Source of the DNA: an uncultured virus (IMG/VR IMGVR_UViG_2061766007_000307)
Taxonomy: Duplodnaviria; Heunggongvirae; Uroviricota; Caudoviricetes
IMG/VR virus record: IMGVR_UViG_2061766007_000307
Direction: 5' to 3' (one strand)
DNA length: 64,000 nucleotides
The notes under the pieces were generated by a model. It did no database searches, had not been told where the DNA came from, and was given only the letters and a program-made list of their open reading frames with translations. How positions within the stretch are numbered: position 1 is the first letter of the stretch; each line of letters starts with the position of its first letter. Below, one piece after another: positions 282 to 52,278 of this stretch. The translations under genes and the position numbers were made by a program.

Positions 282-291
282 NNNNNNNNNN

Positions 292-4745: not shown

Positions 4746-4948
4746 AGATATATATGTGGACCCTGCGACCAACAGGTTATTTATTCTTCCAATGAGATTT
4801 AATCCCACCACATCTCCTAGAACAACAAGGATTTGGATGAGAATTTAGATTTGGCTTTTTGAATAAAAATTTACGATTACATACAGGACATTCTAATTCA
4901 ATCATTTCTTTATGAACATGATCTTTTTGTCTATTGTAAGTTCCTGAA

Positions 4949-4996
4949 GTGAACTACTCATGAACTAAAGATTCATGAGCTTCGGATTTCAACGGG
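4949..4996 (-). mobile_element. Family-1 right end/omegaRNA 3' part, truncated by gap
   Basis: Identical to 181-228. Confidence 0.8.
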
Positions 4997-5006
4997 NNNN
5001 NNNNNN

Positions 5007-5221
5007 TAGAAATATCTGATGATGCAGAAACTATGAATTTCATCAAACAAGCAGTACCTGCTATATTCTACCCTCACCCTAAGAAAGAGACACCAGCTGA
5101 GTATAGGCAGCGAAAAGATAGGGAAAAGTCAACCAGGCCAGCTGACAATAGCTCATTCGGTATGTCTGATAAGAATATGTCTACTCTCCAGAAATTAAAA
5201 GAACAGCTTGCATCTGAATAA
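5007..5221 (+). CDS. C-terminal fragment of an unknown protein (open back to the N-gap)
   Basis: Frame open upstream of the listed ATG up to the gap. Confidence 0.55.
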
Positions 5222-11321: not shown

Positions 11322-12547
11322 TTATTTACAAGATTTACTATATTGACGTTTCATCGGGTGTCCAATGACATTGCCCTCACCGTCCTTAATCCCACTTCCC
11401 GACGGGATTTTATTTTCGATTGCATCCAGGGCTTGCGGATGCAGACCAAACTGCAATATATTCTTTGCAGCGTTCACGTCCCTATCATGGTGTTCGCCAC
11501 AAACAGGACATGTCCACTCTCTTACATTGAGGTTTTTGACATCCTTGTTCTGATAGCCGCACTTGTGGCATATCTGGCTAGATGGATCAAAGCGACCTAT
11601 AAACACAACGTTCTTGCCATACCATTCGCTCTTGTATGTAAGCTGCCTTACAAACTCTCCCCAAGAAACAGACTGTATAGCTCTCGCAAGATGATGGTTC
11701 TTCAACATACTGTCAACATTAAGGTCTTCCAGACATATTGTGTCGAATCTCTTCACAATATGTCTGTGGATAATTTGTGAAGATAATCCGACCTTTGGTT
11801 GGCTATCTTTCTGTGTTGCCTTGCAACCTTTAGCCTCATTTCTTCATGACGCTTTGACGTCTTTTCAGTCCTTGCGAACTTCTGCTGAAGCTTTTTCAGT
11901 TTCCTTTGGCCACGTTCAAAGTACTTCGGATTACTATATTTCGTACCGTCAGACAATGTAGCAAAGTCCTTTATTCCCAGGTCGATTCCAACAGCAGTTT
12001 CCTCTTGTATCTTGGCTTTCGATACATTCGGCTTGCCGTCGTCGACTACGATGGAACACCAGTAATCTCCACATTTGTCTCTTGATACAGTCAACGTGCC
12101 AATCTTGCAAGTTGAAAGGTCAAACTCTTGGTTGTGACACAGTTTCATCCACCCTATCTTTGGTATCTTCACCTTGTTCTTTTCGAAGTCGAAATGAACA
12201 CTATTGATGAACTTGCACACGTCCTTTGAGTGCTTCTTTGACTTAAACTTAGGGAATCCTTTCTTTGACTTGAAGAACTGCGTGTATGCATTGTCGAGAC
12301 AGCGCAATGACTGCTGTAACGCTTCATTTGTACAATCATTGAGCCATTTATACTCTTCAGTATGTTTAAGCAATGTCAGTTCTTTTGCGAGTTGCAGGTA
12401 CGTTACGTTTTTCTTTGTTTCTTTGTATGTCTCAACTTTTCGGTCAAGTCCCCAATTGTATATAAAACGAGCACAGCCGAAGAATTGAGACAGCATGATC
12501 TGCTGCTTCACTGTCGGTTTTATTTTGTATTTGTACGCTCGTTTCAT
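11322..12547 (-). pseudogene. tnpB: TnpB family 2, frameshifted by a 2-nt insertion near 11758
   Basis: MKRAYKY...GIDLG...LHKLSTD in one frame and [11 protein letters not shown]...CPVC...DRDVNAA in the next; GAC-AT-ATT-GTG junction; 3' end differs from family 1 (ATGAAACGTCAA). Confidence 0.85.
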
Positions 12548-12558
12548 AATAGATGATT

Positions 12559-12803
12559 GTGAACTACTCATGAACTAAAGATTCATGTGCTTCAGATTTC
12601 AACGGGATGTTTGCGTTGCGTACAGACTAGCTTTTCAGTTGGTCTAGACTCCGTCTTATTAGTCCATCCTTCCGTATAATCGATCGTTCCAGTCGATGTT
12701 GTTTTATCAACACTGTAAAGATACAATGATGATTTTACATTTACAAGAAATTTTGGACTTTTTGTGTGATTCATCACAGAAACTGAAGATTTCAAGGTTT
12801 TTC
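12559..12803 (-). mobile_element. Non-autonomous cassette: left-end hairpin, TATCTTTAC promoter-like motif, omegaRNA, right end
   Basis: Homologous to 12810, 37235 and 38722; right end lies 11 nt upstream of the family-2 tnpB ATG. Confidence 0.85.
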
Positions 12804-12809
12804 ATAATT

Positions 12810-13036
12810 GTGAACTACTCATGAACTAAAGATTCATGAGCTTCGGATTTCAACGAGATGTTTGCGTTGCGTACAGACCAGCTTTTCAGTTGGTTTAGAC
12901 TCCGTCNNNNNNNNNNNNNNNNNNNNNNNNNNNNNNNNNNNNCTGTAAAAATACAATGATGATTTTATATTTACACGAAATTTTGAACTTTTTGTACGAT
13001 TCATCCCCGAAACTGAAGATTTCTGGGTTTTCTCGT
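12810..13036 (-). mobile_element. Second tandem non-autonomous omegaRNA cassette (internal gap)
   Basis: Same layout; TCAT precedes ACGAGAAAACCC left end. Confidence 0.82.
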
Positions 13037-20258: not shown

Positions 20259-20302
20259 TGTAAAATAACTTATAGGAAGAGATAAAGAACATAAATCAGT
20301 AG

Positions 20303-20398
20303 TCTGCTGGAACTGCTGATTATACTGAGGGAGCAGATGTAAGGCCTGCCAGAGTTGAAATCTGAAGTTCACATACTAAAGATCTGTAAGTAGTTCAC
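20303..20398 (+). mobile_element. Degenerate family-1 omegaRNA/right-end remnant
   Basis: GCTGGAAC..GATTATAC.GAGGGAGCAGATGTAAG...GTTGAAATC.GAAG...GTAGTTCAC. Confidence 0.75.
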
Positions 20399-27097: not shown

Positions 27098-27233
27098 TAA
27101 CTCGTGATTATATTAGCCTTTTAGGTAGTATTTGTGGCGATTGTGAGAAATGTAGTCATTCACATTATTTAATTTTAGGAATTATTTGCAAATTTACAAA
27201 AAGATTTGTAATTTTACAGAAAGATTATAAGAA

Positions 27234-28427
27234 ATGGTAAAAATATACAAAACATATAAATACATGATGTGCCCGAATAAGGAGCAGGAAAGTGTTCTTG
27301 CGAGATATTTCGGGTCAGTCCGCTTTGTGTATAACCATTTCCTTGCTGAACGCAAAAGACAGTATAGTGAGAGCGGTAAGAGTGACAACTACCGCACACA
27401 AGCAAAAGCTTTGACCTTGTTGAAAAAGAAAGAAGATTTCGCTTGGCTGAAGGAAATCAACTCCCAGACACTACAGTTCTCTCTTCGCTGTTTGGAAACC
27501 GCATATACTAACTTTTTTAGCGGTAGAACGAAGTTTCCGAGATTCAAGATTAAAAAGAATGGAGGTAGTTTCACTGTTCCTCAGAACTGCTCCATCAAAG
27601 ATGGGAAAATCTACATACCAAAGTTCAAGCAAGGCATCAAAATCAAGGAGCACAGAACATTCCAAGGGAATGTCAGGAATATGACGATCTCCATAACGCC
27701 AAGCGGGAAATACTATGTTTCTATATTATCCGAAGTCGAACATAAGCCTTTGAGGAAAACCAACAAGAAGGTAGGGATAGACTTAGGTATCAAAGATTTC
27801 ATAGTAACTAGCGATGGTATGAGGTATTCAAGCAACAAGTTTGTCAAGCATTATGCCAAGAAACTTACAAAGGCTCAAAAGCGTTTGTCCAAAAAGTACA
27901 AAGGAAGTGGAGAGTGGCATAGGATGCGATTGAAGGTTGCGAGAATACAAGAGAAGATACACAACTGCCGTATGGACAAGTTGCATAAGATTTCCGCCGA
28001 TTTGGTAAGGAATTATGATGTGATTTGCTGCGAGGACTTGAATGTGAAAGGAATGCAGAGAAACCACAAACTCGCTCAAAGCATAGCTGATGCGAGCTGG
28101 GGTATGTTCTTGAATTTGCTTTCGTACAAATGTGAGAGGGACGATAAGCAGCTTGTTAAAGTGAGCAGGTTCTATCCATCCTCAAAGACTTGTAGCCACT
28201 GTGGTTATGTCAAGAAAGATTTGTCTCTGAAAGACAGATATTGGAAATGTCCTCATTGCGGGAATATGATCGATAGAGATTTGAATGCATCGATCAACAT
28301 CCTGAACGAAGGTATCAGAAATATATCGGCTGGAACGGTCGATTATACGGAGGGAGCAGACGTAAGACCTACTCGTGGGCAGTCAGCGTTGAAATCCGAA
28401 GCCTGCGAATCTTTAGTTCGTGGGTAG
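27234..28427 (+). CDS. tnpB: TnpB family 1, intact RuvC triad
   Basis: HTH N-terminus, GIDLG, CCEDL, zinc finger, DRDLNA; right end TTCAC at 28428-28432. Confidence 0.95.
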   Translation: MVKIYKTYKYMMCPNKEQESVLARYFGSVRFVYNHFLAERKRQYSESGKSDNYRTQAKALTLLKKKEDFAWLKEINSQTLQFSLRCLETAYTNFFSGRTKFPRFKIKKNGGSFTVPQNCSIKDGKIYIPKFKQGIKIKEHRTFQGNVRNMTISITPSGKYYVSILSEVEHKPLRKTNKKVGIDLGIKDFIVTSDGMRYSSNKFVKHYAKKLTKAQKRLSKKYKGSGEWHRMRLKVARIQEKIHNCRMDKLHKISADLVRNYDVICCEDLNVKGMQRNHKLAQSIADASWGMFLNLLSYKCERDDKQLVKVSRFYPSSKTCSHCGYVKKDLSLKDRYWKCPHCGNMIDRDLNASINILNEGIRNISAGTVDYTEGADVRPTRGQSALKSEACESLVRG

Positions 28428-28772
28428 TTCACTTGTGAATTGGAAGAAATCACAGATAGCCCATATGATATAATCTATTTCATCTATATCTTCTTTGACA
28501 TGATGCTGTGAGTAGCTATTCATGCTTACTATTCTCTTCAGAGTCTGCACTCTATGATATATGCTTGAAAATGATACAGTATGCGCTTTTCGAGGGTTTT
28601 CTTTTGCATATTCGTCTATACGTGACATGCAATAGTTCAATACATCTTGCTTTGTATAGCACATATATCCGTCACATAATACGCAATGTGCGATATCAAT
28701 CCACTTATGACTGATAAATTTTCTGCGGCGATACCATCCTTTACAATATGACATGAAGTTATCAAATATCAT
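28413..28772 (-). CDS. Hypothetical protein whose last codons come from the IS right end
   Basis: GTGATTATA at 28801; ends SELPTN* inside the right-end hairpin. Confidence 0.65.
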   Translation of the reverse strand: MIFDNFMSYCKGWYRRRKFISHKWIDIAHCVLCDGYMCYTKQDVLNYCMSRIDEYAKENPRKAHTVSFSSIYHRVQTLKRIVSMNSYSQHHVKEDIDEIDYIIWAICDFFQFTSELPTN

Positions 28773-31016: not shown

Positions 31017-31310
31017 TTCTAGTATTATCGCATATATTACATGAACTACCTTGAAAGGTTCCAGACGTCACAACTGTTCAGCCTGTATAATCGGATGTTC
31101 CTGCCGATATAATATGATCATACTGAAAATAAGATCATATCATATAAGATTTACAATAAGACAATAAGTCTGTATAAGACACAAAAAGAGCACCATCAAG
31201 TTTCACTGTTATGTACATCATCTGATCGCGATGGACCGCTCCTGCTATACAGGCACTAATGTACAGTTCGACTCTATCTGGTGCTCTCTGGTATGTTGTG
31301 TACAGAGCTG

Positions 31311-34176: not shown

Positions 34177-36831
34177 TTACTCTGCGTTAGAAGTAAGCGC
34201 GCCTGTAGGAAGGATATAGCAGCGCTGAACAAGCTTCTCCATAGGACGGGCACCTTCGATCTTGATGTCAAGGACACCATAGAAATTGTCGATAATCTCT
34301 GCAGTATTATTAGTACTGTTCATGATTACCTCAAAGGCAGTCAATCCACCTGAACGCTGTGGAGTAGCTGTCACACTCTTCAAGAATGTGTTACATTTTG
34401 AAACTATCTCTGTTCTGATAGATTCGGTGTTCTCCTGGAATACATATGGTCTGATGATATTCTCGATCTCATCCATGATGTAAACCACGAAATCTCTGAA
34501 GCTCAATGCAGATAGTGCAGAAACAGGCTTCTGTTTAGCAGTCTTGTTACCATATACACATATTGTGTTCTGTTCATCTCCAGCATCAATGATAGCATTG
34601 ATACCCATAGCTTCAAGCCATTCTCTATCTTTTGTAGACAATGGAACTTCTGGGTTGTATCCTGGAAGAGCACCTCTCAATGTACCTGCAGCAACAGACC
34701 AAGGATTGTCTTTCTGGATGAACAGATTAGAAACTACACCTGCGGGAGGAAGAAGCTTAGCACCCTTGCGGTTCCATGGGTAGAAGTATCCTACATGTGT
34801 TGCGCCATCCTTGATATTAGGCACTGTGAAGATATCAGATGTTGCTATTGCTTTGTAATTCAAGCTGCCGAACTCATCTGTGAAATCATCTACCTTAGTC
34901 AATGCCAATGCAGAAGGTGCGTTAAGAAGGCCTGTTGCGTGCTGTGCCATACATACCTTAGCAAAGATTGCCTTAGAGCTAGGTTCGATGCCGTATCCCC
35001 AGCAGTCTACCAAGTATCTGAATGATACTACCATACGGTCTGTGATAGCCTTCCACATATTAGTATGTCCATAAACAGCTTCAGGAGCAGGTTCAGGTTC
35101 CCACTTGCCTGTAGTCTTGTTGCGAAGAGTCACAGCATATTTCAAAGGAGTATCTTCGGCATCTCTCAATGAATGAAGGATAGCCTTATAGTTGTTAGGG
35201 TTAGATGCACATGGCTCTACACCGACCTCAATCTTATCCATATGTGATGTCTCAAGGATCTTCTTCTCTGCAGGAGTGCCCTTCTCACAATAAGGAACTG
35301 TGAATCCTATGATATTAGTTGTAGATGCAAGATTTCTCAAGAATGTATCTATTGAAATATCTGTGCCTGCAGCATTTGTCAAGCCTGGAACAGATGCTCC
35401 TGTGTATGTATATACACCTGTGATACCATTACAGTCAAACAATGCGTCATCCATTCTGATGAACTGCAATGAAGATGCATGCTCGCCAAGACCCCAAGAT
35501 TTCATCAATGAGATCATGTCATTAGACAATGTCTTGACATCGCTGAAGATCACTATTGTAAACATGAAGTCAGCCAAAGTGTAATCAGATGCACTGAATC
35601 CTTTCTCATCTAGATATTCCTGCAGCTCGAATGGAATGTCATTTCCGTAGTAGTCTGAAATAGGAATATTGTATGCAAGCATTGATGATGTATCGCTTGG
35701 AGTCTTGTATACATATGCTCTGATATCATTACCAGAAGCGTTTGCAATATATACGAAAGGCTGTCCATCATATGTCTCATCATCAGCAGGGTTCAAATGA
35801 ACTGATGTATCGTATGGGTTAGACAAGATGCGGTTACCCAAAACGTCATTAGTTCCCAATAGCTTCACAATATCAATTGTGATGATATCTACCTCAGATT
35901 CGCTTGGTTCAGGCTCATCAGCAATTGTCAATGTAACGTTATCGCCAGAGCGAGTAATTGCTATATTAAGCTGGCGGTCATTAGAATATACATTGTCTAT
36001 ATCTGTAACGTAAACATGAGGTGTTTCTGATAGATACTCAGCCTTAGGATAGATCAACACATCTACAGGCTCTACATTTTCGTCCAAGATACTCGCTCCT
36101 GTCGGATCATCTGGGTTAGGGATATATCTGCAAAGATGTGCGCGACCGATAGGCTTATAAGTAGCATTGGCTATGTACCATAGGTTGTCGCTGTCTTTGT
36201 TGATGTCTTCTGAGAATATAATGACATTCAGATAATCATATTCTGCAAGCGCTGCAGCAGCTGCTGTATTATCTGTTCCATTGTTCTCAGTACCATTCTC
36301 TGTGTCATCACCTGCAAGATTACTCCATGTAACAACAGATTCGTCTGTAAAGTCACATAGCAATTTCTTTTCGCCTAACGTGATGATGTTCTGATCATTT
36401 ATAGAATCGCGCAAGCGGTCAGGCCATGGCTCATACCACAAAGCCGTAGAGAAAGCTCCTTTGATCGGTGATGCGAAAGGCTGTGCAAACTTTGTACCTA
36501 TTGCATATCCATCAATAACATTCTCTGCGTCACCATATGAATGAAGGTTAAGCGCAATAATCGGACCAGCTTTCAACATTTCAATAGCTGTACGATGGAA
36601 GAAACATCCGTTAGCCTCTAGTTTAGGGTCGATGTTGCCAAATATAGATACAAACTGATCTGAATCGTTGATCTTAAATGGCTTGTTGAATGGGCCTTTG
36701 TAAGAAAAGCCTGGAACAATTCGGCCTCTTGAATATGTGCTCTCGTATGTTGGCTGCATAGTGCTCAAATCGAACTCGCGGCGGTAAACACCGGCAGACT
36801 TGATACTAACTAATTCTTGAGATATTGCCAT
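34177..36831 (-). CDS. Contractile tail sheath protein (gp18-like)
   Basis: SAGVYRREFD, GPFNKP, FVSIFG, PWSVAAGTLRG, GINAI, YGNKT, VFQENT, STNNTAEIID. Confidence 0.92.
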   Translation of the reverse strand: MAISQELVSIKSAGVYRREFDLSTMQPTYESTYSRGRIVPGFSYKGPFNKPFKINDSDQFVSIFGNIDPKLEANGCFFHRTAIEMLKAGPIIALNLHSYGDAENVIDGYAIGTKFAQPFASPIKGAFSTALWYEPWPDRLRDSINDQNIITLGEKKLLCDFTDESVVTWSNLAGDDTENGTENNGTDNTAAAAALAEYDYLNVIIFSEDINKDSDNLWYIANATYKPIGRAHLCRYIPNPDDPTGASILDENVEPVDVLIYPKAEYLSETPHVYVTDIDNVYSNDRQLNIAITRSGDNVTLTIADEPEPSESEVDIITIDIVKLLGTNDVLGNRILSNPYDTSVHLNPADDETYDGQPFVYIANASGNDIRAYVYKTPSDTSSMLAYNIPISDYYGNDIPFELQEYLDEKGFSASDYTLADFMFTIVIFSDVKTLSNDMISLMKSWGLGEHASSLQFIRMDDALFDCNGITGVYTYTGASVPGLTNAAGTDISIDTFLRNLASTTNIIGFTVPYCEKGTPAEKKILETSHMDKIEVGVEPCASNPNNYKAILHSLRDAEDTPLKYAVTLRNKTTGKWEPEPAPEAVYGHTNMWKAITDRMVVSFRYLVDCWGYGIEPSSKAIFAKVCMAQHATGLLNAPSALALTKVDDFTDEFGSLNYKAIATSDIFTVPNIKDGATHVGYFYPWNRKGAKLLPPAGVVSNLFIQKDNPWSVAAGTLRGALPGYNPEVPLSTKDREWLEAMGINAIIDAGDEQNTICVYGNKTAKQKPVSALSALSFRDFVVYIMDEIENIIRPYVFQENTESIRTEIVSKCNTFLKSVTATPQRSGGLTAFEVIMNSTNNTAEIIDNFYGVLDIKIEGARPMEKLVQRCYILPTGALTSNAE

Positions 36832-36874
36832 AATTTGTTATATAGTCTATTATATTCTTATTTACTGTCTTACC

Positions 36875-37071
36875 TGAAACAACAAAAACAATGTGCAATG
36901 TCTATCTGACACTGCACATTGCGCCCACCCCAAATAATGGTCATTATTTATGTTATGACCTTGACGCTTCATTGGATGGTCAAAGGGAATCATCCTCCAC
37001 GCCCATGAACACGTTTATTAACATGCACGTAACCATCGAATATATAATCACAAAGATATGGCAATATGCTC
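36875..37071 (-). ncRNA. Stand-alone family-2 omegaRNA-like unit 1 (promoter, scaffold, variable segment, terminator)
   Basis: GTGATTATA, then GGGCGTGGAGGATG...CATCCAATGAAGCGTCAA aligning with the tnpB-2 3' end, then CAATGTGCAGTGTC/GACATTGCACATTG and a T-tract. Confidence 0.7.
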
Positions 37072-37234
37072 TGAAACAATAAAAAACAATGTACAATGTC
37101 TATATGACACTGCACATTGCGCCCTCCAAACAATGGTCATTATCTATGACCTTGACGCTTCACAGGATGGCCAAAGGGAAGCATCCTCCACGCCCATGAA
37201 CACGCTTGTTAACATGCACGTAACCATCAATATT
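37072..37234 (-). ncRNA. Family-2 omegaRNA-like unit 2 (own promoter replaced by the family-1 cassette)
   Basis: Direct repeat of unit 1. Confidence 0.7.
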
Positions 37235-37480
37235 GTGAACTACCCATGAACTAAAGATTCATAGGCTTCGGATTTCAACGGGATGTTTGTGTTGCGTACA
37301 GACCAACTTTTCAATTGGTTTAGACTCCGTCTTATTAGTCCCTCCCTCCGTATAATCGACTGTCCCGGCCGATGTTGTTTTATCAACACTGTAAAGATAC
37401 AATAATGATTTTACGTTTACACGAAATTTTAGACTTTTGTGTGATTCATCTAAGAAATTAAAGATTTCTGGGTTTCTCGT
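37235..37480 (-). mobile_element. Family-1 omegaRNA cassette with left end
   Basis: Homologous to 12810 and 38722. Confidence 0.85.
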
Positions 37481-37481
37481 A

Positions 37482-37672
37482 TGAAACAACAAAAACAATG
37501 TGCAATGTTTAATAAACACTGCACATTGCGCCCACCAAATAATGGTCAATTATTTATGACCTTGACGCTTCACTGGATGGCAAAAGGGATCATCCTCCAC
37601 GCCCATGAACACGCTTATTAACATGCACGTAATCATCAAATATATAATCACACAGATATGGCAATATGCTCT
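37482..37672 (-). ncRNA. Family-2 omegaRNA-like unit 3
   Basis: Direct repeat of unit 1 with GTGATTATA at 37643-37651. Confidence 0.7.
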
Positions 37673-37679
37673 GATTGGA

Positions 37680-38720
37680 AATAAAATATGCAATACCCTC
37701 GCGAGCACTGCATATATGAGAATTATCTGTTTAATTTTCTAACGTAAAGATACTATATTATAATGTATGTTCCAACAGAAACTTTGAAAATCTTTTCAAT
37801 ATATACAAAAAAGATAGCAGTACCCTCACGAGCATTGCTATCAGATGAATTTAATATTATTAAGTATGTACCGTGAACTGCCCACGAACCAAAGATTCGC
37901 GTGCTTCGGATTTCAACGGGATATTTGCGTTGCGTACAGACCAACTGAAAAGTTAGTTTAGACTCCGTCTTATTAGTCCCTCCCTCCGTATAATCGACCG
38001 TCCCAGCCGATGTTGGTTATCAACACTGTAAAGATACAACAATATTCTATATGATCAAACAAAAGCCTTGTTTATTGTATGTAAGTAACAAAAAGAAATG
38101 CAGTGCTCTCACGAGCACTGCATTCAAATGATTAATTTTTTATGGATTAGTTTTGTGTGCTGTAAAGATACAATAATGTTCTATATGATCAAACAAAAAC
38201 ATTGTTTATTGTATGTAAGCAACAAAAAGAAATGCAGTACTCTCACGAGCGCTGCATTCAAAGGATTAAATTTTATTGATTATGATACTGTAAAGATACT
38301 ATAATGTTCTGAATATCCAAACAGAAATATAGAAATTTTTCATATAATAAATATACAAAAGAAAAGCAGCACTCTCACGAGCACTGCTAGTCGAAAGGAT
38401 TATATTGTATTATGATATTGTAAAGATACTATGAAGTTCTGAATATCCAAACAGAAATAGAGAAATTTTTCATGTGATATATAAAAATGCAGTACTCTCA
38501 CGAGCACTGCATTCCTGGAAACATAAAAAAAATATAAAAAATAAATGGATGATCTTATTTTAGCTTAAATGCATAAAATTTATCCGCAGCTAAAGAACAA
38601 CACGTCCTATTGCCTGTATGTATGCATTTATATACATATAATCACGCAGAAATCTCTTTTTGATGCAAATATAAACAAAAAAAATAACATGCATTATTCT
38701 CGCGAGCATTGCATGTTATA
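37680..38720 (-). ncRNA. Array of seven conserved-hairpin sRNA-like units
   Basis: TGCAGTRCYCTCRCGAGCACTGCA-type hairpins at 37686, 37813, 38097, 38231, 38365, 38486, 38684, each with a T-tract 3' on the minus strand; TATCTTTAC motif about 30-35 nt upstream of four of them. Confidence 0.65.
37873..38037 (-). ncRNA. Family-1 omegaRNA without left end, using an sRNA-array promoter and terminator
   Basis: Upstream sequence 38026-38095 matches array unit 38160-38230 rather than the left-end hairpin. Confidence 0.7.
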
Positions 38721-38721
38721 A

Positions 38722-38969
38722 GTGAACTACTCATGAACTAAAGATTCATGAGCTTCGGATTTCAACGGGATGTTTGCGTTGCGTACAGACCGACTGAAAA
38801 GTTGGTTTAGACTCCGTCTTATTAGTCCCTCCCTCCGTATAATCGACCGTTCCAGCCGATGTTGTTTATCAACACTGTAAATATACAATAATGATTTTAT
38901 ATTTACAAGAAATTTTGAACTTTTTTGTGCGATTCATCCCAGAAACTGAAGATTTCTGGGTTTTCTCGT
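38722..38969 (-). mobile_element. Family-1 omegaRNA cassette with left end
   Basis: Complete ungapped copy; TCAT precedes the left end. Confidence 0.88.
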
Positions 38970-39044
38970 ATGATTTTATAAAGGTGCTGGATGCAATAAG
39001 AGCATGCAACACCTTTACCTTAAAGAGACGTATATATGCATTGA

Positions 39045-40391
39045 TTACATATCACCGAAACCACCGTTTGATGGTGAAGATGCTGCACCGAATGGATTGC
39101 TAGGAGCTGCTCCCATGTTACCTACAAATGGGTTGCTCTGCGGTGCTGCTCCCATATTGCCTGCAAATGGGTTGCTCTGTGGTGCTGCTCCATGCATGTT
39201 TACACCAAAAGGATTGCTTGCTGGAGCTGCCGGCTGGGCTGCAAACGGATTGGCTACCTGTATCTGAGGTGCTACACCCTGAGCTATTGCAGAAGCAGCT
39301 GTTCCTGCTGATGTTGTCATCATAGCCATTGCTTCTTGATAGCGTCTAGCAAATGTTTCTTGAACCTCTTTAACCTTTTCAGGAGTGAACATATTTGGGT
39401 TCGATGTCAGCAATGCATTGTACTTTTCTTTGATACCCTTGAATGCAGCATAGAATTGAGCCTTCCATGCTTCGTAAGCTTTAATATCAGTACCTACATA
39501 AACGAATGAGCCGCCAGATGTCTTGACTAACTTGTCGTGTCCTAGATCATATGATTGAAGTGATACATTGTACTGGATACGGCGGCTGCGAGATGCATCA
39601 TAAGACAAATCTACAACGATGGCCTTAGTATTAGAAGGCTGGACTAATTCTGCCATAGCACCGTAAAGTCCCTGCTCTTCAAATGCCTTGCTCAATGTAT
39701 ATGAAACACGGAACAAAACGAAGCGACCCACAGTATCTGGATTGTTCTTATTGCTAAGAATCTGGCCTAAGAAATACTTATTGTCAATAGTGCGTACGAA
39801 TTTCTTTCTTAATTCAGTGTCACCAGATAAAGCATTAAGCATCTTATCCAAAATGTCATCATGCTTATTAGCTACTCTTGGAGATATCTCGCAGAAAATA
39901 GGCTCTTTCTCGTCACACGGATCACATATCATTGTCATGATAGAGTTGAATACTGAAACAGACTTATTCTTATCGATCATGATAGGATAAGGTCTGATCA
40001 CGACTGTGTTGCTCTCCTTGTAATTCAAAGCGAAAATACACTCCTCTGTGATAGGTTCGTAACCACCTGAATCACCGTTGATTTGAGATACAACATCAAC
40101 TTCGTTTGATCCATCCATACCAGACAACCAATCATCCTCGCCACCTACGTTGTCAGGGATGTCGAACTGTGTCCCTTCATTGTTGTAACTTTCAGTTTCA
40201 ATTGAATGATTTGCATAAGGATTATCATGAACTGTTGTGTCAATGACTGATGCTCCTGGTACACTTTCTTCGTCCGCTGTACTGCTGACATTAAACGGAT
40301 TTGAAGCTGTTTCTGATGCTTCGCGAGCTGCCTTTTCTGTGGCTAGTCTCTTTTTACGCTGATACTGCGTTTCTTTAATTTCTTCTGCCAT
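39045..40391 (-). CDS. gp32-like single-stranded DNA-binding protein (putative)
   Basis: YFLGQILSNKNNPDTVGRFVLFRV resembles the T4 gp32 core; acidic N-terminal extension and NPF-repeat tail. Confidence 0.55.
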   Translation of the reverse strand: MAEEIKETQYQRKKRLATEKAAREASETASNPFNVSSTADEESVPGASVIDTTVHDNPYANHSIETESYNNEGTQFDIPDNVGGEDDWLSGMDGSNEVDVVSQINGDSGGYEPITEECIFALNYKESNTVVIRPYPIMIDKNKSVSVFNSIMTMICDPCDEKEPIFCEISPRVANKHDDILDKMLNALSGDTELRKKFVRTIDNKYFLGQILSNKNNPDTVGRFVLFRVSYTLSKAFEEQGLYGAMAELVQPSNTKAIVVDLSYDASRSRRIQYNVSLQSYDLGHDKLVKTSGGSFVYVGTDIKAYEAWKAQFYAAFKGIKEKYNALLTSNPNMFTPEKVKEVQETFARRYQEAMAMMTTSAGTAASAIAQGVAPQIQVANPFAAQPAAPASNPFGVNMHGAAPQSNPFAGNMGAAPQSNPFVGNMGAAPSNPFGAASSPSNGGFGDM

Positions 40392-50885: not shown

Positions 50886-50914
50886 GAATCTTCGAATATT
50901 TATACTATAAAGTA

Positions 50915-52278
50915 CAAGAAAACCTCGAAATCTTTAGTTTCGTGGATGAATTGCACTAACCTTGGTTTACTATATAATCACTTATAGTGTCAGGATTAGC
51001 TTCTTCTATCGAACAAACTAAGCTTAAAAAGAGTTGTAAATTTGCAAAAATATATGTAATTTTACAGAAAAATTATAAAATGGTAAAGATATACAGAACA
51101 TACAAGTATAGGATGTATCCGAATAAGGAGCAAGAGCAAGTTCTTGCGAGATATTTCGGCTCTGTCCGTTTTGTGTATAACCATTTCCTTGCTGAACGCA
51201 AAAGGCAATACGAAGAGAACGGTAAGAGCGATAACTATCTTGCACAGGCAAAAACTTTGACCTTGCTGAAAAAGAAAGAAGATTTCGCATGGCTAAAAGA
51301 GATCAACTCCCAAACCTTGCAGTTTTCTCTCCGCTGTTTAGAAACCGCCTATACTAACTTTTTCAGCGGTAGAACGAAGTTTCCGAGATTCAAGACGAAG
51401 AAGCACGGAGGTAGCTTCACTGTCCTGCAAAACTGCTCTATCAAAGATGGAAAAATCTTTATTCCGAAGTTCAAACAAGGCATCAAAATCAAAGAGCACA
51501 GAGCATTCCAAGGGAATGTTAGAAATATGACGATTTCGGTCACACCAAGCGGGAAATGCTATGTTTCCATATTATCCGAAGTTGAACACGAACCTTCAAG
51601 GAAAACCAACAAGAAGGTCGGGATAGATTTAGGCATCAAGGATTTCATAGTAGCTAGCGATGGTGTGAGGTATTCAAGCAACACGTTTGTCAAGCATTAT
51701 GCTAAAAAGCTTACAAAAGCTCAAAAGTGCTTATCAAAGAAGCATAATGGTAGCGGTGAATGGCATAGGATGCGATTGAAGGTTGCGAAGATACATGAGA
51801 AGATACATAACTGCCGTATGGACAAATTGCATAAGATTTCTGCCGATTTGGTAAGGAATTATGATGTGATTTGTTGCGAGGATTTGAATGTGAAAGCTAT
51901 GCAGAGAAACCACAAGCTCGCACAAAGTATAGCTGATGCTAGCTGGGGTGCATTCTTGAATCTACTTTCGTACAAATGTGCGAGAGAAGATAAGCAGCTT
52001 GTCAAGATAGACAGGTTCTATCCTTCTTCAAAGACTTGCAGTCACTGCGGTTATGTTAAGAAAGACTTGTCTCTAAAAGACAGAACCTGGAAATGCCCTC
52101 ATTGCAGACAGATGATTGATCGCGATCTGAATGCCGCGATCAATATCCTAAATGAAGGCATTAGAAATATATCGGCTGGAACGGTCGATTATACGGAGGG
52201 AGCAGATGTAAGACCTACTTGTAGGCTGTCAGCGTTGAAATCCGAAGCCCGTGGATCTTTAGTTCATGAGTAGTTCAC
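50915..52278 (+). mobile_element. Non-autonomous IS200/IS605-type element (left end, tnpB, right end; no tnpA)
   Basis: Left hairpin CCTCGAAATCTTTAGTTTCGTGG and right hairpin ending GTAGTTCAC; left boundary approximate. Confidence 0.78.
51080..52273 (+). CDS. tnpB: TnpB family 1, intact RuvC triad
   Basis: Start MVKIYRTY by homology with 27234; same motifs. Confidence 0.95.
   Translation: MVKIYRTYKYRMYPNKEQEQVLARYFGSVRFVYNHFLAERKRQYEENGKSDNYLAQAKTLTLLKKKEDFAWLKEINSQTLQFSLRCLETAYTNFFSGRTKFPRFKTKKHGGSFTVLQNCSIKDGKIFIPKFKQGIKIKEHRAFQGNVRNMTISVTPSGKCYVSILSEVEHEPSRKTNKKVGIDLGIKDFIVASDGVRYSSNTFVKHYAKKLTKAQKCLSKKHNGSGEWHRMRLKVAKIHEKIHNCRMDKLHKISADLVRNYDVICCEDLNVKAMQRNHKLAQSIADASWGAFLNLLSYKCAREDKQLVKIDRFYPSSKTCSHCGYVKKDLSLKDRTWKCPHCRQMIDRDLNAAINILNEGIRNISAGTVDYTEGADVRPTCRLSALKSEARGSLVHE

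Follow-up and report, generated by a model that had tools for sequence, protein, structure and literature searches.

Short promoter-hairpin units interleaved with orphan omegaRNA-like cassettes upstream of the tail-sheath gene of a gut Bacteroidota phage

Anatomy of the short units

In a 64,000-nt stretch of DNA from an uncultured virus of the Caudoviricetes (IMG/VR record IMGVR_UViG_2061766007_000307; the whole stretch is called the window here), we analyzed a group of short units, S1, S3, S4 and S5, which a preliminary description had taken for an array of hairpin small RNAs (sRNAs) with conserved seeds, antisense to translation starts. The window is part of a large rumen or gut Bacteroidota phage; the nearest named relatives of its tail-sheath gene belong to large phages of Bacteroidota hosts (Tenacibaculum, Flavobacterium) and to huge gut phages, and the stretch is present in bovine and pig gut metagenome runs. 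The units lie 5´ of the sheath gene within a 2.2-kb gap (36832-39044) free of open reading frames (ORFs), flanked by this gene and, upstream, by a gene for 448 aa (39045-40391), both on the minus strand. No ORF of note was found in the gap with translation table 11 or with TAG read as Q, and a coding interpretation of the gap was dropped. Besides the S units, the gap contains three copies of a structured 170-nt element, A, three copies of another element, B, and one odd unit, X, and the order along the minus strand, from upstream to downstream, is A3, X, S5, S4, S3, A2, S1, B3, A1 fused to B2, B1 and the sheath gene. The short units are as follows.

37680-37753, minus strand: S1, with promoter box 37744-37753, 29-nt body, hairpin 37690-37711 and a weak T-tract
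38090-38171, minus strand: S3, with promoter box 38162-38171, 37-nt body, hairpin 38100-38121 and a T-tract
38224-38299, minus strand: S4, with promoter box 38290-38299, 31-nt body, hairpin 38234-38255 and a T-tract
38356-38429, minus strand: S5, with promoter box 38420-38429, 29-nt body, hairpin 38366-38387 and a T-tract

All four share a common plan, in which a Bacteroidota-type promoter box is followed by an A/U-rich body of 29-37 nt, a GNRA-tetraloop hairpin and a T-tract. The box, GTATCTTTAC, occurs seven times in the window against 0.18 expected, a count that none of 100 shuffles reached; six occurrences fall within 37391-38429 and one is at 12715, and all seven are in A or S units. In S3, S4, S5 and A2, TTTG precedes the box by 19 nt, and the resulting promoter, TTTG-N19-TAtcTTTA, matches the Bacteroidetes -33/-7 (sigma-A-type) consensus given in a published study (PMC7366714), in agreement, at the motif level, with the promoter assignment of the preliminary description. 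The hairpin, of the GCAGTGCTCGTGAGAGTACTGC type, is 22 nt long with the pattern GCAGTGCTC-GTGA-GAGTACTGC; allowing up to three mismatches, there are six matches against 0 expected, all at 37690-38510 and none elsewhere in the window, and a seventh copy, weaker and degenerate, at 38676-38716. Terminator-like sites in general are enriched in the region 36500-39500 (nine against 1.4 expected), with eight of the nine on the minus strand. Tandem Repeats Finder assigned 3.2 copies with a repeat period of 130-134 to 38025-38440. The repeat units of ~130 bp and the promoter, hairpin and T-tract features described for the minus strand at 37680-38720 are present, far above chance.

At the motif level, each S unit thus appears to have its own promoter and intrinsic terminator, and the combination of a Bacteroidota promoter with a terminator-like 3´ end makes host-polymerase transcripts of ~60-68 nt plausible. 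When folded from a start ~6 nt after the box, the S RNAs are predicted to be 60-68 nt long, with 23-32 A/U-rich nt left unpaired on the 5´ side and a hairpin of -15 to -22 kcal/mol behind them.

The conserved motif CTCGYGAG turned out to be the GUGA/GCGA tetraloop apex of the terminator and not a seed, and the bodies are the least conserved segment of the units (~73%, versus 90-92% in the neighboring segments). The hairpin type is also common to S1, S3-S5, A2, A3 and X. As a description of promoter and terminator anatomy the hairpin sRNA array stands, but short units account for only four of the seven hairpins; the remaining three close A2 and A3 (copies of the 170-nt element) and X (a ~170-nt unit with another promoter motif). 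Scanning IMG/VR with the hairpin pattern returned 17 loci and no S homologue, 15 of the loci representing one other element family and two being GC-rich chance matches; the same apex followed by a T-tract is found, in single copies, in 15 of the 17 contigs. A reading of the hairpin as a CRISPR repeat or an RNA anti-CRISPR was considered and set aside; the hairpin is always followed by a T-tract and is single in the other contigs. We also noted that the IMG/VR contigs L004-L012 and L015-L020 contain, at ~1440-1540, a conserved ~80-nt element with two GCTCGTGAGAG-apex hairpins, the second followed by a T-tract; in this other group of phages, the element may represent a small RNA or a module for 3´ ends.

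Element A, tnpB genes and the origin of the short units

Element A is the omegaRNA scaffold, that is, the TnpB guide-RNA scaffold, together with the right end of an IS605-family transposon. Its copies and the associated tnpB genes are located as follows.

37235-37484, minus strand: A1 element, with left-end hairpin, box 37391-37400 and scaffold 37235-37379; fused to B2, its own terminator absent
37803-38037, minus strand: A2 cassette, with box 38028-38037, omegaRNA-like scaffold 37873-38017 ending in TTCAC, 34-nt tail 37839-37872, terminator hairpin 37817-37838 and a T-tract
38676-38977, minus strand: A3 and terminator, with left-end hairpin, promoter box, omegaRNA-like scaffold 38722-38866 ending in TTCAC, degenerate hairpin 38689-38714 and a T-tract
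11350-12972, minus strand: two tandem A copies, 12810-12972 (partly N) and 12559-12703, directly upstream of a frameshifted tnpB (12571 to ~11350)
27234-28434, plus strand: full-length tnpB with RuvC-type motifs; an omegaRNA/right end (28319-28432) overlaps its 3´ end, and a box, TGTAATTTTACAG, is at 27207
50913-52278, plus strand: insertion sequence copy, with left-end hairpin 50913-50959, box TGTAATTTTACAG at 51055, tnpB, and omegaRNA/right end 52165-52278 ending in TTCAC
All omegaRNA/right-end-like copies found with cmsearch: 181-342, 937-1050, 1838-1951, 4949-5070, 12559-12703, 12810-12972, 20296-20398, 28319-28432, 31041-31114, 37235-37379, 37873-38017, 38722-38866 and 52165-52278

When A3 was compared with the window by blastn, many further copies were found. 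The 5´ core of the element, ATCGGCTGGAACGGTCGATTATACGGAGGGAG, and its 3´ core (GTTGAAATCCGAAGC, a hairpin and GTAGTTCAC) overlap the 3´ ends of the tnpB ORFs 233-1132, 27234-28427 and 50987-52273, the overlapping elements all ending in TTCAC, and the same overlap between core and tnpB 3´ end, again ending in TTCAC, was seen with a complete transposon in L038, a contig of a Bacteroidales metagenome-assembled genome (MAG). Six aligned A copies are identical up to TTCAC and have unrelated flanks beyond it, and such immediate divergence is the behavior of an IS605 right end, where the flank is the guide. At the other side, a left-end hairpin resembling the right-end hairpin lies ~100 nt upstream of the copies A1, A3, A4 and A5, also precedes the tnpB at 50987, and is included in a gene-less 165-nt copy at 1838-2002. 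TTTAT stands directly before the left end in five of five complete copies (the left end of A3 begins right after TTTAT at 38978-38982) and probably represents the target-adjacent motif. Four A copies carry a box of the TTGTATCTTTACAG type within the mobile unit itself, with the left-end hairpin on one side of it and the scaffold on the other.

The consensus fold of element A has one 5´ and one terminal hairpin, as well as a closing helix that encloses a variable middle part; three of the 22 pairs of the fold show compensatory changes, concentrated in the terminal hairpin, among only nine, closely related, sequences. A covariance model built from eight window copies and L038 detected 13 copies in the 64-kb window by cmsearch. 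Against 101 Bacteroidales genomes, the omegaRNA model (R1) matched only the MAG that had supplied L038, and with the family in only one of the 101 sampled genomes, this phage appears unusually heavily colonized. No Rfam family was found for A, B, S or X at the gathering threshold or at E values up to 10, and exact IMG/VR scans with two A motifs gave 0 loci each. All four N runs of the window (282-291, 1045-1126, 4997-5006 and 12907-12942) are within, or at the end of, omegaRNA-like copies of element A, which are thus poorly resolved or masked; given these runs and the broken contigs, repeat copy numbers in the assembly are uncertain and the repeats may be misassembled.

The window contains four tnpB genes, of which two are full-length, one is truncated at its 5´ end and one is frameshifted. 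The Pfam domains OrfB_IS605 and Cas12f1-like_TNB were found in the ORFs 233-1132, 27234-28427 and 50987-52273. The alignment of TnpB 27234-28427 with solved ISDra2-type TnpB structures spans the whole protein (E = 1.7e-83), which retains the D/E/D-bearing RuvC-type motifs GIDLGIK, CCEDLN and DRDLNA, so that a compatible TnpB with what looks like an intact RuvC-type active site is encoded in the same genome as element A. The tnpB genes at 27234 and ~51080 have the box TGTAATTTTACAG, closely similar to the A/S box, ~13 nt before the ATG. The frameshifted tnpB (11350-12571) belongs to a different subfamily; 15 nt separate its start codon from the terminal TTCAC of a preceding A copy, and two A copies are arranged in tandem upstream of it.

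Gene-less elements with an omegaRNA and standalone omegaRNAs have been described as mobilized and acting in trans, with a role that is unknown (PMC10691335, PMC10055086). A1-A5 and the copy at 1838-2002 resemble such standalone omegaRNAs and PATE-like gene-less IS200/IS605 elements in having the ends and the scaffold, no protein gene, and tnpB elsewhere in the genome. They differ from both in that the middle insert of the A subfamily is enlarged and a Bacteroidota-type promoter lies inside the element, A2 and A3 have dedicated terminator hairpins, and three copies occupy a single phage gap, interleaved with S units.

The S units share their box and terminator hairpin with the cassettes A2 and A3 and lack the scaffold; cmsearch with the omegaRNA model gave no match on any of them. 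The units are mosaic in sequence, with 45/50 matches in the 50 nt upstream for S3 and A2 and likewise for S4 and S5, and 37/40 in the 40 nt downstream for S3 and S4, whereas the bodies themselves match at only 24/33 to 27/37 positions. Two long repeat families (115 nt at 92% and 75 nt at 91%) overlap within the body, suggesting that the "variable 30 nt" is largely the junction of two duplication segments. The body similarity of S3 to S4 and of S4 to S5 is significant (0/500 shuffles reached the score), and the S1 body shows no significant similarity to the other S bodies.

We favor, with moderate confidence, an interpretation in which the S units are scaffold-less paralogues or duplicates of orphan omegaRNA cassettes in a transposon-colonized, rearranging intergenic region. 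The units would have multiplied by segmental tandem duplication in this recombination-prone region, and the variable body would largely mark the meeting point of two overlapping duplication segments, not a diversified seed. Host RNA polymerase would read each S promoter until the intrinsic terminator stops it 60-68 nt later, giving a short A/U-rich RNA that, having no TnpB scaffold, would be unable to guide TnpB. The main effect may be that transcription from transposon-borne promoters is halted by the terminators before it enters the late tail-sheath operon. The apparent "phage sRNA array" would accordingly be re-filed under an IS605/TnpB guide-RNA expansion that amounts to 13 omegaRNA-like copies, accompanied by four tnpB genes, in 64 kb, a natural example of gene-less omegaRNA elements that have their own host-type promoter followed by terminators, and one in which module duplication can yield units resembling sRNA genes.

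Several observations weigh against this interpretation. The similarity between the A2 tail and the S bodies is marginal (12/500 shuffles reached the score for S4, and the other comparisons were not significant). Local alignments of the longer S and A promoter regions with tnpB 5´ regions were no better than shuffles (23-284/300) and a MAFFT alignment was uninformative; descent of the S/A promoter regions from tnpB 5´ regions is thus unsupported beyond the box and was dropped, and the link between S and tnpB promoters comes down to a 12/14 motif match. A promoter, an unstructured 5´ region and a terminator are also the exact anatomy of canonical Bacteroides intergenic sRNAs (PMC7366714), which makes a trans function conceivable, and the pairing of an intact-looking terminator with every S promoter could reflect selection. 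Finally, blastn of the gap against 50,697 phage records gave no match, and a metagenome scan for the box, 20-50 nt and the hairpin apex gave 17 loci, all GC-rich coding chance matches; phage records, IMG/VR and the metagenome collection thus gave no S homologue by which selection on the S units could be assessed.

The arrangement with element A raises the question of whether the S units have a role in the TnpB system itself, as vacant-site or decoy targets or as separately expressed guide-like RNAs alongside the orphan omegaRNAs. The interleaving of S units with omegaRNA cassettes under the same promoter and terminator speaks for such a role, as does the weak alignment of the A2 tail with the S4 body, which start right after TTCAC and TTTAC, respectively, and standalone trans-acting omegaRNAs and omegaRNA arrays are known (PMC10691335). 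The scaffold is nevertheless wholly absent from S by cmsearch, the bodies are preceded by TTTAC and not by the TTTAT of the five complete left ends, and the variable part is 5´ of the hairpin, opposite to the polarity of an omegaRNA, in which the guide follows the scaffold and the flanks diverge 3´ of TTCAC. We therefore regard a part for the S units in the TnpB system as highly improbable. In the omegaRNA arrays of sigma-factor-associated inactivated TnpB, several omegaRNA units, duplicated side by side, address several sites (PMC10691335); here, by comparison, the tnpB genes seem to be parts of transposons and to encode catalytically competent proteins, the DNA at the flanks would simply be the guide, and unrelated units are mixed into the array.

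A broader proposal, which we consider very unlikely, is that the phage keeps, upstream of the sheath gene, a battery of RNAs driven by host-type promoters, in which orphan omegaRNAs with fixed 3´ flanks arm its own TnpB in trans and the scaffold-less S RNAs have been co-opted as a second class, of short regulators, through base pairing with host RNAs or as modulators of TnpB-omegaRNA. If this were true, transposon promoter and terminator modules would have been recycled into new small-RNA genes.

Predicted base pairing of the short RNAs

The anatomy of the S units also suggests that they might be genuine trans-acting phage sRNAs whose A/U-rich 5´ bodies pair with host or competitor RNAs, a credible but doubtful reading. 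The presence of TTTG 19 nt before the host-type box of S3, S4 and S5 and the predicted unpaired 5´ region of 23-32 nt ahead of a stable terminator hairpin are in line with it; features of this kind were used to define high-confidence intergenic sRNAs of B. thetaiotaomicron (PMC7366714), and the bodies differ between units while the flanks stay similar. Like canonical Bacteroides intergenic sRNAs such as GibS, the S units are predicted to combine a sigma-ABfr-type promoter of their own with a single-stranded 5´ region and Rho-independent termination (PMC7366714). They differ from GibS-type sRNAs in being predicted from sequence, with no conserved seed or target signal, and in being phage-borne tandem duplicates that are absent from relatives.

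Pairing predictions gave no indication of targets at gene starts. When the four bodies were paired by RNAduplex with 54 gene starts from the window, the best energies were -10.0 to -11.6 kcal/mol, and these were matched by 34, 30, 50 and 53 of the 100 dinucleotide shuffles made per body; internal coding windows paired with the S bodies as well as gene starts or better. The preliminary description, which held the bodies to be antisense to translation starts, had itself named complementarity no better than that of shuffled controls as the result that would speak against the idea, and this is the result obtained for the testable targets, the phage gene starts. Pairing of S with the A, B and X RNAs or with the leaders of tnpB, the sheath gene and the upstream gene was likewise unremarkable, with nothing above shuffles (best of 36 tests, 5/200). 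In a search of 201 Bacteroidales genomes, a weak test of host targets, the 26-nt complement of S4 had four matches, all with three mismatches, versus one for the reversed control.

The plus-strand strings that had been likened to leaders with a start codon are indeed present, but the ATTATG pair (38258-38284 and 38394-38415) opens frames of three codons followed by a stop, ATGATACTGTAA and ATGATATTGTAA. The complement of these ATTATG starts sits 6 nt after the box, at the extreme 5´ edge of any transcript, which also argues against trans-acting sRNAs directed at translation starts, as does the lack of the array in relatives. Furthermore, Shine-Dalgarno-like 4-mers at -20 to -5 were found for 0 of 48 phage genes, versus 11% of random 16-mers, the leaders being A/T-rich without GG, and the AAAGGA of the strings is thus unlike the real leaders of this phage.

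If the S RNAs are made and active, the locus would record how small-RNA genes arise from parts of a transposon; otherwise, it would show the need for care when sRNAs are called from motifs in phage DNA rich in transposons.

Element B, the phage-type promoter and the sheath leader

The remaining units of the gap use another promoter motif and, together with the gene downstream, are located as follows.

36874-37674, minus strand: B family, with B3 at 37482-37674, B2 at 37075-37234 and B1 at 36874-37074
38474-38644, minus strand: X unit, with TGATTATAT at 38636-38644, a body of ~125 nt and an S-type hairpin at 38489-38510
34177-36831, minus strand: tail-sheath gene, directly downstream of the array

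B1 and B3 are headed by TGATTATAT (37042-37050 and 37642-37650, respectively). The B copies are ~170-190 nt long, with a predicted multi-helix fold, and contain no consistent ORF, small frames differing between copies; each ends in a hairpin of 15-16 bp followed by a T-tract, and 57 nt separate the end of B1 from the sheath ATG. We counted 26 occurrences of TGATTATAT in the window (2.8 expected), usually preceded by TG. Most sites are 30-50 nt upstream of genes and of a tRNA (for example, 2257, 9358, 16887, 19046, 24541, 56681, 59522 and 61413). TGATTATAT probably serves this phage as a general promoter element of its own and differs from the host-type box of A and S.

Within 36832-37050, the stretch before the sheath gene, we found no promoter motif between the B1 terminator and the sheath ATG. 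In two relatives, L001 and L003, whose sheath genes are 66-73% identical, only ~290 nt precede the sheath gene, with a single promoter-hairpin unit (4810-5000 in each contig) in which TGATTATAT is followed by ~70 nt without an ATG, a CGTGAG-apex hairpin with T-tract, ~110 nt and the sheath ATG. The lack of a sheath promoter after the last terminator, together with an order kept in two relatives, suggests that sheath expression needs terminator read-through.

These features led us to consider whether the hairpins, S units included, could be conditional terminators of a late-gene leader, in which the promoters are constitutive, the short RNAs are by-products and a phage factor permits read-through into the sheath operon. 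The 57 nt between the B1 terminator and the sheath ATG are devoid of promoter motifs, the nearest TGATTATAT (37042-37050) is cut off from the ATG by the terminator with a 15-bp stem, and L001 and L003 keep the order of TGATTATAT, hairpin with T-tract and sheath ATG. This evidence, however, concerns B1 and the unit of the relatives, for which a promoter-proximal terminator before a late gene is found; the S units, for which it is not, have promoters of the other type and are separated from the sheath gene by 1-1.6 kb and several further terminators. An antiterminator gene was not found, though no search was aimed at one. We consider this explanation unlikely for the S units. In the late leader of phage lambda, the promoter pR' gives rise to the short terminated 6S RNA, and the terminator tR' lies upstream of the late structural operon. 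The arrangement here departs from pR'-6S RNA-tR' in its many tandem units, two promoter types and mostly transposon-derived sequence, and in that no antiterminator is known.

The array is dispensable or variable, as indicated by the short gap in L001 and L003 and by an independent DNA run (X5). This run covers S1-S4 at ≥95% identity, has no cover at 38464-38631 and a cover of 0.18 at 38632-38715, and contains a joint from 37059 to 38225; these gaps and the joint indicate that array content varies among strains. In three RNA libraries from two studies (X18, X19 and X20), contigs cover parts of A and B and none lies at 38044-38715 or on S units, though contigs cannot show absence, level or ends. 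These contigs include an A 3´ end fused to B and an omegaRNA copy of the insertion sequence type, for which DNA carry-over is possible.

The gene upstream of the gap (39045-40391) had no relative in IMG/VR. Elsewhere in the window, a cluster of seven tRNAs includes one with the anticodon CTA (2759-2838; an amber suppressor, called Pyl by ARAGORN), and when TAG was read as Q the long ORFs of the window were hardly longer.

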